DNA of 64,000 nt, taken from assembly GCF_055900595.2 (NCBI RefSeq), contig NZ_CM148325.1. The stretch is one strand, 5' to 3'. Made by a program: the position numbers and the translations under genes. The notes under the pieces were generated by a model. That model did not search any database and was not told the DNA's origin. It saw only the letters and a program-made list of their open reading frames with translations. How positions within the stretch are numbered: position 1 is the first letter of the stretch; each line of letters starts with the position of its first letter. Below, piece after piece: positions 9,188 to 19,182 of this stretch.

Positions 9188-10069
9188 ATGGATCTGCGCC
9201 GTTTTATTACGCTTAAAACCGTGGTGGAAGAGGGTTCCTTTTTGCGAGCTTCGCAAAAATTGTGTTGCACACAATCGACGGTGACTTTTCATATTCAGCA
9301 GCTTGAACAGGAGTTCTCAGTACAATTGTTTGAGAAAATTGGCCGACGGATGTGCCTCACTCGCGAAGGCAAAAAGTTGCTGCCGCACATCTATGAACTC
9401 ACCAGAGTGATGGATACGCTTCGTGAGGCTGCCAAAAAAGAGTCTGATCCGGACGGAGAACTGCGCGTTGTTTCAGGCGAAACGCTGCTCTCTTACCGAA
9501 TGCCGCAGGTGTTGCAGCGTTTTCGGCAACGTGCACCAAAAGTGCGTTTATCACTGCAGTCGCTGAACTGTTACGTGATCCGTGATGCTCTACTGAATGA
9601 TGAGGCCGATGTCGGTGTTTTTTATCGCGTAGGAAATGATGATGCTCTGAATCGACGAGAATTGGGTGAACAATCGCTGGTGCTGGTGGCTTCACCGCAA
9701 ATTGCAGATGTCGATTTTACTCAGCCTGGAAGACATAACGCCTGTAGCTTTATTATCAACGAACCACAATGTGTCTTCCGGCAGATATTTGAGAGCACGC
9801 TGCGCCAGCGGCGGATCACGGTGGAAAATACCATTGAGCTTATAAGCATTGAAAGCATCAAGCGTTGTGTCGCGGCGAATATCGGGGTCAGTTACCTGCC
9901 GCGCTTTGCAGTGGCAAATGAACTTGCGAGTGGCGAATTAATCGAATTGCCTTTTGGCGAACAGTCGCAGACCATTACGGCAATGTGCGCTCACCATGCC
10001 GGGAAAGCGGTTAGCCCGGCGATGCACACTTTTATTCAGTGTGTTGAAGAGTGTTTTTTGCCGGGATAA
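9188..10069 (+). CDS. yfiE: LysR-family transcriptional regulator YfiE
   Basis: 293 aa from Met at 9188; N-terminal LysR HTH (MDLRRFITLKTVVEEGSFLRASQKL). Confidence 0.85.
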   Translation: MDLRRFITLKTVVEEGSFLRASQKLCCTQSTVTFHIQQLEQEFSVQLFEKIGRRMCLTREGKKLLPHIYELTRVMDTLREAAKKESDPDGELRVVSGETLLSYRMPQVLQRFRQRAPKVRLSLQSLNCYVIRDALLNDEADVGVFYRVGNDDALNRRELGEQSLVLVASPQIADVDFTQPGRHNACSFIINEPQCVFRQIFESTLRQRRITVENTIELISIESIKRCVAANIGVSYLPRFAVANELASGELIELPFGEQSQTITAMCAHHAGKAVSPAMHTFIQCVEECFLPG

Positions 10070-11743: not shown

Positions 11744-14130
<2,387 letters not shown>

Positions 14131-14384
14131 TCATGTTGTGCGATTAAACACCTGCTATTTTAATTTTTGTTACAGAGGCTAAACAGACCGAATCACGGCG
14201 ACGAGAAAACGAGAAGTTACTGGCTGGCGAAGGATTATGTGGTGAAATAAAAAGGCCGTTGGGTTACTCTTCAGGCAGTTAAATGGGCATTTCTACACAG
14301 ATAATGCGATGTTCAGATTCTGTAGACTTATAATGATAGATAATGATCCGTCTACAGCATGACAAACAAAAACAGATGCGTTAC

Positions 14385-14412
14385 GGAACTTTACAAAAAC
14401 GAGACACTCTAA
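14385..14412 (+). promoter_or_regulatory. SigmaE-dependent promoter upstream of rpoE (GGAACTT-N16-TCTAA)
   Basis: Exact match to sigmaE -35 GGAACTT and -10 TCTAA with 16-bp spacer, about 85 bp upstream of rpoE start. Confidence 0.8.
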
Positions 14413-14494
14413 CCCTTTGCTTGCTCAAATTGCAGCTAATGGAGTGGCGTTTCGATAGCGCGTGGAAATTTGGTTTGGGGAGACTTTACCTCGG

Positions 14495-15070
14495 ATGAGC
14501 GAGCAGTTAACGGACCAGGTCCTGGTTGAACGGGTCCAGAAGGGAGATCAGAAAGCCTTTAACTTACTGGTAGTGCGCTATCAGCATAAAGTGGCGAGTC
14601 TGGTTTCCCGCTATGTGCCGTCGGGTGATGTTCCCGATGTGGTACAAGAAGCTTTTATTAAAGCCTATCGTGCGCTGGATTCGTTCCGGGGAGATAGCGC
14701 TTTTTATACATGGCTGTATCGGATTGCTGTAAATACAGCGAAAAATTACCTGGTTGCTCAGGGACGCCGTCCACCTTCCAGTGATGTGGATGCCATTGAA
14801 GCTGAAAACTTCGAAAGTGGCGGCGCGTTGAAAGAAATTTCGAACCCTGAGAACTTAATGTTGTCAGAAGAACTGAGACAGATAGTTTTCCGAACTATTG
14901 AGTCCCTCCCGGAAGATTTACGCATGGCAATAACCTTGCGGGAGCTGGATGGCCTGAGCTATGAAGAGATAGCCGCTATCATGGATTGTCCGGTAGGTAC
15001 GGTGCGTTCACGTATCTTCCGAGCGAGGGAAGCTATTGATAACAAAGTTCAACCGCTTATCAGGCGTTGA
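14495..15070 (+). CDS. rpoE: RNA polymerase sigma factor sigmaE (sigma-24, ECF family)
   Basis: 191 aa; sequence recognised (MSEQLTDQVLVERVQKGDQKAFNLLVVRYQHKV...). Confidence 0.97.
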   Translation: MSEQLTDQVLVERVQKGDQKAFNLLVVRYQHKVASLVSRYVPSGDVPDVVQEAFIKAYRALDSFRGDSAFYTWLYRIAVNTAKNYLVAQGRRPPSSDVDAIEAENFESGGALKEISNPENLMLSEELRQIVFRTIESLPEDLRMAITLRELDGLSYEEIAAIMDCPVGTVRSRIFRAREAIDNKVQPLIRR

Positions 15071-15102
15071 CGATAGCGGGATACTGGATAAGGGTATTAG
15101 GC

Positions 15103-15753
15103 ATGCAGAAAGAACAACTTTCCGCTTTAATGGATGGCGAAACGCTGGATAGTGAGCTGCTTAACGAACTGGCTCATAACCCAGAAATGCAGAAAACCTG
15201 GGAAAGCTATCACTTAATCCGTGACTCAATGCGGGGTGATACTCCCGAGGTGCTCCATTTCGATATCTCTTCACGCGTAATGGCCGCCATTGAAGAAGAG
15301 CCAGTACGTCAACCGGCGACACTGATCCCAGAGGCCCAGCCTGCGCCGCATCAATGGCAGAAAATGCCATTCTGGCAGAAAGTACGTCCATGGGCAGCAC
15401 AGCTTACCCAAATGGGCGTAGCAGCATGCGTATCGCTTGCAGTTATCGTTGGCGTCCAGCACTATAATGGGCAATCTGAAACGTCCCAGCAGCCCGAAAC
15501 GCCAGTATTTAATACACTGCCGATGATGGGTAAAGCCAGCCCGGTTAGCCTGGGAGTACCTTCTGAAGCGACTGCAAATAATGGTCAACAGCAGCAGGTA
15601 CAGGAGCAGCGTCGTCGCATTAATGCAATGTTGCAGGATTACGAACTGCAACGTCGACTCCACTCTGAACAGCTTCAGTTTGAGCAGGCCCAAACACAGC
15701 AAGCCGCTGTACAGGTGCCAGGAATTCAAACTTTAGGAACGCAATCGCAGTAA
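15103..15753 (+). CDS. rseA: Anti-sigmaE factor RseA
   Basis: 216 aa; N-terminal anti-sigma domain, single TM segment, Gln-rich periplasmic tail; overlaps rseB start (TAATG). Confidence 0.95.
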   Translation: MQKEQLSALMDGETLDSELLNELAHNPEMQKTWESYHLIRDSMRGDTPEVLHFDISSRVMAAIEEEPVRQPATLIPEAQPAPHQWQKMPFWQKVRPWAAQLTQMGVAACVSLAVIVGVQHYNGQSETSQQPETPVFNTLPMMGKASPVSLGVPSEATANNGQQQQVQEQRRRINAMLQDYELQRRLHSEQLQFEQAQTQQAAVQVPGIQTLGTQSQ

Positions 15754-16709
15754 TGAAGCAACTTTGGTTTGCCATGTCATTAGTGACAGGTAGCCTGTTA
15801 TTCTCTGCTAACGCCTCGGCCACTCCCGCGTCCGGGGCGTTATTACAGCAGATGAACCTGGCCAGTCAGTCACTGAATTACGAGCTGTCATTCATCAGCA
15901 TCAATAAACAGGGTGTTGAGTCTCTGCGTTATCGACATGCACGCCTCGATAACCGTCCTCTTGCACAATTGTTGCAAATGGATGGCCCGCGCCGGGAAGT
16001 GGTACAGCGCGGCAATGAAATCAGCTACTTTGAACCGGGCCTTGAACCGTTCACGCTTAATGGCGATTACATTGTTGATTCTCTGCCATCGCTCATCTAT
16101 ACCGATTTCAAACGCCTTTCTCCTTACTACGACTTTATCTCCGTGGGACGCACGCGTATTGCTGATCGTCTTTGCGAAGTCATTCGCGTGGTGGCCCGTG
16201 ATGGCACACGCTACAGCTACATCGTGTGGATGGACACCGAATCGAAATTACCGATGCGGGTTGATCTCCTTGATCGCGATGGTGAAACGCTGGAACAATT
16301 TCGCGTGATTGCTTTTAACGTTAATCAGGATATCAGCAGCAGTATGCAGACGCTGGCGAAAGCAAATCTGCCGCCGCTGCTTTCTGTTCCTGTAGGTGAA
16401 AAAGCTAAATTCAGCTGGACGCCAACCTGGTTGCCACAGGGGTTTAGTGAAGTTTCCAGCAGCCGACGTCCGTTACCGACGATGGACAACATGCCTATCG
16501 AATCACGTCTCTATTCCGACGGATTATTCAGCTTCTCGGTAAACGTTAACCGCGCTACGCCATCGAGCACCGATCAGATGTTGCGCACCGGACGCAGAAC
16601 CGTCAGTACAAGCGTACGTGATAACGCCGAAATCACCATTGTCGGCGAACTGCCGCCGCAAACGGCGAAACGCATTGCCGAGAATATTAAGTTCGGGGCA
16701 GCGCAATGA
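15753..16709 (+). CDS. rseB: SigmaE regulatory protein RseB (periplasmic)
   Basis: 318 aa with signal peptide; operon position. Confidence 0.95.
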   Translation: MKQLWFAMSLVTGSLLFSANASATPASGALLQQMNLASQSLNYELSFISINKQGVESLRYRHARLDNRPLAQLLQMDGPRREVVQRGNEISYFEPGLEPFTLNGDYIVDSLPSLIYTDFKRLSPYYDFISVGRTRIADRLCEVIRVVARDGTRYSYIVWMDTESKLPMRVDLLDRDGETLEQFRVIAFNVNQDISSSMQTLAKANLPPLLSVPVGEKAKFSWTPTWLPQGFSEVSSSRRPLPTMDNMPIESRLYSDGLFSFSVNVNRATPSSTDQMLRTGRRTVSTSVRDNAEITIVGELPPQTAKRIAENIKFGAAQ

Positions 16710-17185
16710 TCAAAGAGTGGGCTACGGTCGTCTCCTGGCAAAACGGGCAGGCGCTGGTCAGTTGTGATGTTAAAGCCTCATGCAGCAGCTGTGCTTCCCG
16801 TGTCGGTTGCGGTAGCCGCGTGCTGAATAAACTTGGCCCACAAACCACGCATACCATTGTCGTACCCTGTGATGAACCGTTAGTACCGGGGCAAAAAGTG
16901 GAATTAGGAATCACCGAAGGCAGCCTGCTTAGCTCCGCATTACTGGTTTATATGTCGCCGTTGGTGGGATTATTCCTCATCGCTTCGTTATTTCAGCTAC
17001 TCTTTGCTTCAGATCTTGCAGCATTATGCGGTGCGATTCTCGGCGGCGTTGGTGGATTCCTGATTGCACGCAGCTACTCGCGAAAGTTTGCTGCCCGGGC
17101 AGAATGGCAACCGATCATCTTAAGCGTGGCATTGCCGCCAGGCCTTGTGCGATTTGAAACATCTTCGGAAGACGCGAGCCAGTGA
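16706..17185 (+). CDS. rseC: SigmaE regulatory protein RseC
   Basis: 159 aa membrane protein; 4-bp overlap with rseB. Confidence 0.92.
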   Translation: MIKEWATVVSWQNGQALVSCDVKASCSSCASRVGCGSRVLNKLGPQTTHTIVVPCDEPLVPGQKVELGITEGSLLSSALLVYMSPLVGLFLIASLFQLLFASDLAALCGAILGGVGGFLIARSYSRKFAARAEWQPIILSVALPPGLVRFETSSEDASQ

Positions 17186-17382
17186 TTTCACTGGCTTTGT
17201 TGCATTTTGCATAACAAATGCGAGGACGTTTCCAGATACCACAATCCATACCGTATGAACATTTCCTCGCCTCAATGTTGTAGTGTAGAATGCGGCGTTT
17301 CTATTAATACAGACGTTAAGCTCAGAACAGCGACTTCTAAAAGCCTGGTTAACCGGGCATTAAGGCACAATAATCATACTTT

Positions 17383-19182
<1,800 letters not shown>

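Follow-up and report, generated by a model that had tools for sequence, protein, structure and literature searches.

The GGAACTT-N16-TCTAA motif upstream of rpoE: identity with the described sigma-E-dependent promoter P6 (P2) of the rseD-rpoE-rseABC operon

The stretch of DNA analyzed here (64,000 bases, referred to below as the window) contains the sequence GGAACTT-N16-TCTAA at positions 14385-14412, shortly upstream of the sigma-E gene rpoE. This arrangement raises the questions of whether the motif is a promoter, whether it is recognized by sigma-E itself, and how it relates to the promoters that have been mapped in this region. The evidence assembled below indicates that it is almost certainly the sigma-E-dependent promoter of the Escherichia coli rseD-rpoE-rseABC operon, named P6 and, in older papers, P2. 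This promoter has already been described and is textbook material, so that recognizing it brings no new biology. In the sigma-E response to envelope stress, which E. coli cannot do without and which matters for the virulence of many enteric pathogens, it acts as the positive-feedback node, and its correct recognition in raw sequence is useful for annotation.

Gene context and relation to E. coli K-12

Around the motif, the minus strand carries srmB, a methyltransferase gene, and nadB, in this order, and the plus strand then carries rseD, rpoE, rseA, rseB, rseC, and lepA. The features relevant to the regulatory region are as follows.

12466-14088, minus strand: nadB, the divergent neighbor that bounds the regulatory region, with its ATG at 14088
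14343-14498, plus strand: rseD, the 51-codon rpoE leader ORF ("rpoE leader peptide"), annotated in RefSeq and translated here
14495-15070, plus strand: coding sequence of rpoE (sigma-E), the gene driven by the promoter
15103-15753, plus strand: rseA, whose orthologs contain the RseA_N and RseA_C domains
15753-16709, plus strand: rseB, downstream of rseA
16706-17185, plus strand: rseC, downstream of rseB

The rseD coordinates were transferred from positions 1755-1910 of locus L001 with an offset of +12588, and the TGA codon of this ORF overlaps the ATG of rpoE (ATGA). The preliminary description, made from the sequence alone, gave 14089-14494 as the divergent region between nadB and rpoE, which agrees with the positions of the two ATG codons (14088 on the minus strand and 14495). 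It correctly placed the promoter within this region but overlooked rseD; the promoter lies inside this ORF and not in plain intergenic DNA. The rpoE product is 100% identical to RpoE clusters and contains the ECF sigma domains of Pfam. The sigma factor gene behind the promoter is followed in the same operon by the anti-sigma gene rseA and by rseB and rseC, the gene arrangement of an autoregulatory loop. These three genes are cotranscribed with rpoE, and RseA and RseB form the negative arm of the loop (PMC8595263, PMC6358824).

On the opposite strand, a full-length Rfam match to AsrC (RF02746), the antisense RNA of the rseC mRNA, was found at 16670-17500 (minus strand; 496 bits, E = 3e-158), overlapping rseC and the rseC-lepA junction. 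It was the sole Rfam hit; no RNA family was matched in the rpoE leader or in the nadB-rpoE spacer.

The nadB-rpoE spacer was matched in 5425 of 5426 complete E. coli genomes, in one copy each and always on the chromosome, and a 66-mer around the promoter shows at least 99% identity in 5254 of these 5425 genomes. When the window is aligned with E. coli K-12 MG1655, the two sequences agree in every base from 14241 through the rpoE start, and no difference appears anywhere in the 14241-14700 segment, which takes in the proximal promoters as well as rseD and the 5' half of rpoE. Since the promoter is the same as in K-12, the knowledge gained in K-12 about this site applies here. The spacer differences from MG1655 all fall in its nadB-proximal half, and the flanking genes differ as well. 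Over the segment compared (13000-16500), divergence from MG1655 is very uneven along the window: 5 to 8 differences per 100 nt in nadB, 12 in 14100-14199, and 3 to 5 in rseA and rseB. The window allele of 14113-14175 is present in only 13 of the 5426 complete E. coli genomes.

The promoter motif and its uniqueness in the window

Reading of the sequence and a pattern search both located the motif on the plus strand at the position indicated in the preliminary description. Its parts, together with the adjacent elements, are listed below.

14366-14374, plus strand: A-rich tract ACAAAAACA, approximately -45 to -53 from the predicted start
14385-14391, plus strand: -35 element GGAACTT
14392-14407, plus strand: 16-nt spacer TACAAAAACGAGACAC between the -35 and -10 elements
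14408-14412, plus strand: -10 element TCTAA
14413-14418, plus strand: 6-nt discriminator CCCTTT, within the length typical of sigma-E promoters (5 to 6 nt)
14419, plus strand: predicted transcription start, G, corresponding to position ~2,710,088 (minus strand) of MG1655 (NC_000913.3)

According to Rhodius et al. (PMC1312014), the sigma-E consensus consists of the -35 element GGAACTT and the -10 element TCAAA with a preferred spacer of 16 nt, a discriminator of 5 to 6 nt, 26 or 27 nt from the -35 element to +1, and a purine at the start, and conserved A/T-rich elements are found at -48/-49, upstream of the -35 motifs. The preliminary description had called the pair exact. This holds for the -35 element, which is identical to the published consensus, and for the pair as the rpoE promoter carries it; measured against the consensus, however, the -10 element TCTAA has one mismatch to TCAAA and agrees in four of the five positions. 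The distance of about 85 bp to the rpoE start was a fair estimate, as TCTAA ends 82 nt, and GGAACTT begins 110 nt, upstream of the ATG at 14495. The features by which sigma-E promoters were recognized in this work (-35 element GGAACTT; -10 element TCAAA or, more loosely, TCNAA; spacer of 15 to 19 nt with a preference for 16; 25 to 28 nt from the -35 element to +1) are all seen at the rpoE motif, with +1 at the predicted G14419. So is the appropriate placement, on the plus strand 83 to 110 nt upstream of the ATG of an operon reported to be sigma-E controlled, and so is the conservation described below. The A-rich tract, whose column conservation is 0.7 to 0.99 in 107 upstream regions, is a candidate UP-like element.

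A 12-base pattern could in principle occur by chance and have no function. A search of both strands found GGAACTT-N16-TCTAA only once in the window, and none of 100 dinucleotide-preserving shuffles contained a match to this strict pattern. The relaxed pattern GAACTT-N15-17-TCNAA has two matches in the window, against 0.32 expected; the second one, GAACTT-N16-TCGAA at 9920-9946 (plus strand), lies within a coding region upstream of srmB and is itself probably a chance match without function. This additional occurrence is the one point in favor of a chance origin for the rpoE motif as well. It is outweighed by the absence of the strict pattern from the shuffles, the correct strand and distance to rpoE, the recurrence of the motif at the same position and spacing in other genera, and the binding peak of the sigma-E holoenzyme at this site (see below for both), so that a functionless coincidence can practically be dismissed.

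Transcription start and comparison with other sigma-E promoters

The small RNAs MicA, RybB, and MicL are transcribed from sigma-E-dependent promoters (PMC8595263), and their transcription starts were taken here from the RefSeq-annotated 5' ends of these RNAs. All three are preceded by GAAC(T/C)(T/C)-N16/17-TCNNA with a discriminator of 5 to 6 nt and exactly 27 nt from the end of the -35 element to +1; the -10 elements are TCTGA in micA, TCTTA in rybB, and TCCAA in micL. A second sigma-E promoter, rseA P3, lies inside rpoE.

14841-14847, plus strand: -35 element of rseA P3, cGAACCC, followed by a 16-nt spacer
14864-14868, plus strand: -10 element of rseA P3, TCAGA, followed by a 6-nt discriminator
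14875, plus strand: start of rseA P3, G

The published start of rseA P3 is 228 nt upstream of the rseA ATG (PMC8595263). With this ATG at 15103, the start falls on 14875, and a sigma-E-type motif with the same 27-nt geometry was found exactly there. If the start of the rpoE promoter is set at G14419, the distance from the end of the -35 element to +1 is likewise 27 nt, as in micA, rybB, micL, and rseA P3. Given this common gap, transcription is predicted to start at or next to G14419, a purine, and to produce a leader of 76 nt; the conservation profile points to the same base, since the invariant block GCTTGCTC begins exactly at G14419.

The rpoE promoter thus shares with micA, rybB, micL, and rseA P3 a -35 element with GAAC, a -10 element of the form TCNNA, a spacer of 16 to 17 nt, and a purine start. 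It differs from them in having the complete GGAACTT, together with TCTAA in place of TCAAA, and in driving the gene of the sigma factor itself. The initial transcribed sequence that follows it, GCTTGCTC, is unusually conserved.

Conservation across genera

Orthologous loci were collected with a degenerate pattern for rpoE codons 6 to 22, a segment clear of the promoter, from contigs representing one genome per species. This resulted in 111 loci from approximately 25 genera (including Escherichia, Salmonella, Citrobacter, Enterobacter, Klebsiella, Raoultella, Kluyvera, Kosakonia, Pantoea, Erwinia, Sodalis, and Biostraticola) with 107 distinct upstream regions of 430 nt. The pattern [G/T]GAACTN-N16-TCNAA is present in 105 of the 107, always 104 to 114 nt from the ATG, and has no further match elsewhere in these regions; the remaining two have TCTTA at the -10 position. 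Variation at the 105 orthologous promoters was distributed as follows.

-35 element: GGAACTT in 90, TGAACTT in 13, GGAACTA in 1, GGAACTG in 1
-10 element: TCTAA in 81, TCCAA in 17, TCAAA in 6, TCGAA in 1
Spacer length: 16 nt in 105 of 105
Column conservation: 0.8 to 1.0 in the -35 hexamer, 0.7 to 1.0 in the -10 hexamer, 0.1 to 0.5 in the middle of the spacer, and 0.2 to 0.6 in the discriminator except its last base

TCTAA, the one departure from the published consensus, is therefore the most common -10 element at this particular promoter (81 of 105). Precisely at G14419, conservation is back at approximately 1.0. Two elements held at a constant distance around a spacer that drifts in sequence are the signature of a promoter. 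Eight more distant members of the Enterobacterales, fetched by protein identity (Edwardsiella, Proteus, Xenorhabdus, Musicola, Rahnella, Arsenophonus, Morganella, and Photorhabdus), all carry the motif, 106 to 126 nt upstream of rpoE. In combination, it is found at the same position and with the same spacing in 113 of 115 orthologous regions from more than 30 genera, counts that refer to related sequences with shared ancestry and do not represent independent events.

Because the motif is embedded in the annotated rseD ORF, its conservation could have a different cause, namely, selection on the RseD leader peptide (rseD codons 15 to 24), with the sigma-E-like hexamers as a by-product. Escherichia, Citrobacter, and Salmonella do keep a full-length rseD with a similar peptide, ...MR(Y/N)GTL..., and within these three genera part of the conservation could indeed reflect the peptide. 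However, only they and a few relatives have the full-length ORF. Stop codons just 23 to 56 nt before the rpoE ATG end the rseD frame in Klebsiella, Kluyvera, Raoultella, Kosakonia, many Enterobacter, and others, but the hexamers with their 16-nt spacing persist there, which argues against peptide coding as the reason for their conservation. Furthermore, the conserved columns form two hexamer blocks around a freely varying spacer, with no codon periodicity, and the literature assigns sigma-E-dependent transcription to the proximal rpoE promoter. The promoter is conserved much more widely than the ORF that encloses it in E. coli, and selection on the peptide is a very unlikely explanation of the motif.

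Identity with the published P6 promoter

Six promoters have been described for rpoE in E. coli, and the most proximal of them, P6 (formerly rpoEP2), is recognized by the sigma-E holoenzyme and positively autoregulated (PMC6358824, PMC8745692). Among the others, P2 (RpoN with QseF) and P3 (RpoD with RcsB) have a start site in common, and P4 depends on RpoS (PMC6358824, PMC8745692, PMC5736990). All rpoE promoters sit "upstream of, or within" the leader peptide gene rseD (London et al.), and a highly conserved sigma-E promoter precedes the whole rpoE operon, as stated by Rhodius et al. (PMC1312014). The sequence identity with K-12 from 14241 to rpoE therefore equates the motif with the published, most proximal promoter P6. 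In comparison with K-12, the sequence from 14241 through rpoE, the gene context, and the position as the most proximal of six promoters are the same, and the promoter itself shows no difference. The primary mapping of the rpoE promoters is reportedly that of Rouviere 1995 and Raina 1995.

Binding data point to the same site. The rpoE ATG is presumably at 2,708,034 in the old MG1655 numbering. In vitro genomic SELEX with the reconstituted sigma-E holoenzyme, read out on an MG1655 array with probes 105 bp apart, detected a peak at 2,708,134 in the rpoE<>nadB spacer (PMC5493296). By this assumed conversion, the peak lies approximately 100 bp upstream of the rpoE ATG, that is, on the motif within the resolution of the array. 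W3110 numbering would place the peak within rpoE, so the coordinates used are not those of W3110. Enrichment of the rpoE promoter (PrpoE) by RpoE has also been found by ChIP-qPCR in E. coli K1, according to a published report.

It might still be asked whether a genuine promoter at this position is used mainly by a holoenzyme other than that of sigma-E, such as that of sigma-70, sigma-S, or another ECF sigma factor. The region is known to hold RpoD, RpoS, and RpoN promoters, and E. coli has a second ECF sigma factor, FecI. Nevertheless, a sigma-70 consensus scan of 14040-14540 detected no hexamer pair, the hexamers and the geometry of the motif equal those of the sigma-E-dependent micA, rybB, and micL promoters, and reviews name the sigma-E holoenzyme at the proximal promoter. 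Predominant use by another holoenzyme is thus extremely unlikely, and recognition by sigma-E remains the preferred reading.

The positive autoregulation of rpoE-rseABC proposed in the preliminary description is thereby borne out by the literature, the identity with K-12, the cross-genus footprint, the geometry, and the holoenzyme peak, and its mention of further promoters upstream agrees with the six promoters reported for rpoE, of which this is the most proximal. Other autoregulated operons of ECF sigma factors, e.g., those with the Salmonella rpoE P3 and the Pseudomonas algU-mucABCD promoters, have the same plan, with the sigma gene and the anti-sigma gene cotranscribed from the sigma factor's own promoter; they differ from species to species in promoter numbering and in the count of additional promoters. 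The Salmonella enterica locus in the present set (L084) has GGAACTT-N16-TCTAA at -109.

rseD and the autoregulatory circuit

The location of the promoter inside rseD has a direct consequence for its transcripts. The predicted start, G14419, is 76 nt downstream of the rseD ATG (14343), so that sigma-E-driven transcripts are predicted to have no rseD start codon. Translation of rpoE is reportedly coupled to that of the rseD ORF (Yakhnin et al. 2017). Lacking the rseD start codon, the sigma-E-driven transcripts could neither encode full-length RseD nor use the rseD-rpoE coupling; they would bypass it, leaving the coupling to transcripts from the five distal promoters. Accordingly, there should be two classes of rpoE mRNA that are translated differently, the sigma-E-driven class necessarily without the rseD start codon. 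CsrA has three sites in the rpoE leader, two of them over the Shine-Dalgarno (SD) sequence and the start codon, according to a review.

The circuit can be pictured as follows; its dependence on sigma-E, the layout of six promoters, and the circuitry of RseA and CsrA come from the literature and not from this analysis. Envelope stress leads to the destruction of the anti-sigma factor RseA through DegS/RseP cleavage and to the release of sigma-E. Free sigma-E, together with core RNA polymerase, would recognize GGAACTT with its region 4 and TCTAA with its region 2 across the fixed 16-nt spacer and initiate transcription at about G14419, giving an rpoE-rseA-rseB-rseC mRNA with a 76-nt leader. The released sigma factor thus raises the expression of its own gene, a fast positive feedback, and that of rseA and rseB on the same transcript, a delayed negative feedback, whose arm rseA P3 (14841-14875) reinforces. 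On these transcripts, translation of rpoE would begin directly at the structured, CsrA-controlled SD/AUG region. Both ppGpp (with DksA) and CsrA modulate the loop.

A predicted helix closing the leader of the sigma-E transcript

The leader of the sigma-E-driven transcript comprises the following elements.

14419-14494, plus strand: 76-nt 5' leader of the sigma-E-driven rpoE mRNA, from the predicted start to the rpoE ATG
14478-14483, plus strand: SD sequence GGGGAG within the leader, with the GGA motifs of the published CsrA sites

The predicted transcript begins with 8 to 9 nt, GCUUGCUC(A) at 14419-14427, that are nearly invariant in approximately 120 genomes and complementary to U-GAGCGAGC, a segment (14496-14505) made up of the last two bases of the rpoE AUG and of codons 2 to 4. 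In the minimum-energy fold of 14419-14510, the helix formed by these two segments closes the entire leader, and a GUUUGGGG/CCUCGGAU stem is added over the SD sequence and the AUG. A U-rich, bulged SD-AUG stem of the rpoE leader has been reported to respond to polyamines (PMC4191411), and the GUUUGGGG/CCUCGGAU stem of the predicted fold appears to be the same structure.

The closing helix is part of the minimum-energy fold in 97 of 98 distinct leaders and has a mean pairing probability of 0.82 to 0.93, even when the folded RNA is extended by 200 nt of coding sequence; RNAalifold retains it, and none of 200 random 5' 9-mers reproduces it. Codons 2 (AGC) and 3 (GAG) of rpoE show no synonymous change in 118 sequences, whereas other two-fold codons vary by 15 to 50%. 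Position 14427, opposite U14496, is always a purine (A in 81 leaders, G in 17), and the three C-to-U changes in the 5' arm keep G.U pairs; in Rahnella, the terminal pair of the helix is broken. No compensatory double change was found for this helix because its coding arm never varies, and a metagenome-wide scan for rpoE with GAA at codon 3 recovered a single low-coverage contig, with the 5' arm unchanged, which shows no more than the rarity of the codon change. The fold of the E. coli leader taken singly is not significantly more stable than its shuffles (z = -1.5).

Together, the closing helix and the SD-AUG stem might represent a conserved "closed" leader that buries the start codon and pairs the 5' end, which would keep translation low and regulated and/or protect the 5' end from decay, specifically in the autoregulatory transcript. 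This interpretation of the predicted folds is tentative and rather doubtful, and the leader-closing helix is presented as a lead and not as a finding. The complementarity of the 5' end to the rpoE start region nonetheless provides a testable idea for posttranscriptional control of the feedback loop.

Distal promoters and further conserved blocks

Sequences that might belong to the distal rpoE promoters were also examined. A perfect TATAAT at 14329-14334 (plus strand), with a conservation of 0.8 to 0.9 across genera, lies within a conserved block at 14324-14345 and is a candidate -10 element of one of these promoters; a simple scan found no -35 partner for it. A start approximately 7 nt past this TATAAT would be at 14341-14342, just before the rseD ATG at 14343, so that the transcript would be nearly leaderless for rseD.

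A sigma-54 consensus scan gave best matches of just 7 to 8 of 12 positions. In the MG1655 spacer, GG-N10-GC, which has the -24/-12 spacing of sigma-54 promoters, occurs upstream only once, as CGGATAAACACCTGCT at -354 from the rpoE ATG. The RpoN-dependent rpoE start is, we assume, near -327, which would fit this element. The MG1655 site corresponds to 14141-14156 (plus strand) of the window, which reads CGATTAAACACCTGCT, and other E. coli and E. albertii have GAAT or AAAT there. As the element is polymorphic in E. coli (GG, GA, or AA) and is GA in the window, it was not accepted as the RpoN promoter: either the RpoN-dependent P2 is a site other than the GG-N10-GC at -354, or some E. coli lack P2. 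The paper on sigma-54 ChIP does not mention rpoE or nadB, and the RpoN genomic SELEX paper has no nadB entry.

Between these elements, at 14233-14272 (plus strand), two more blocks, GGATTATGTGGTGAAATAAAAAG and TTGGGTTACTCTTC, are strongly conserved across genera; they presumably are binding sites or elements of the promoters P1 to P5.
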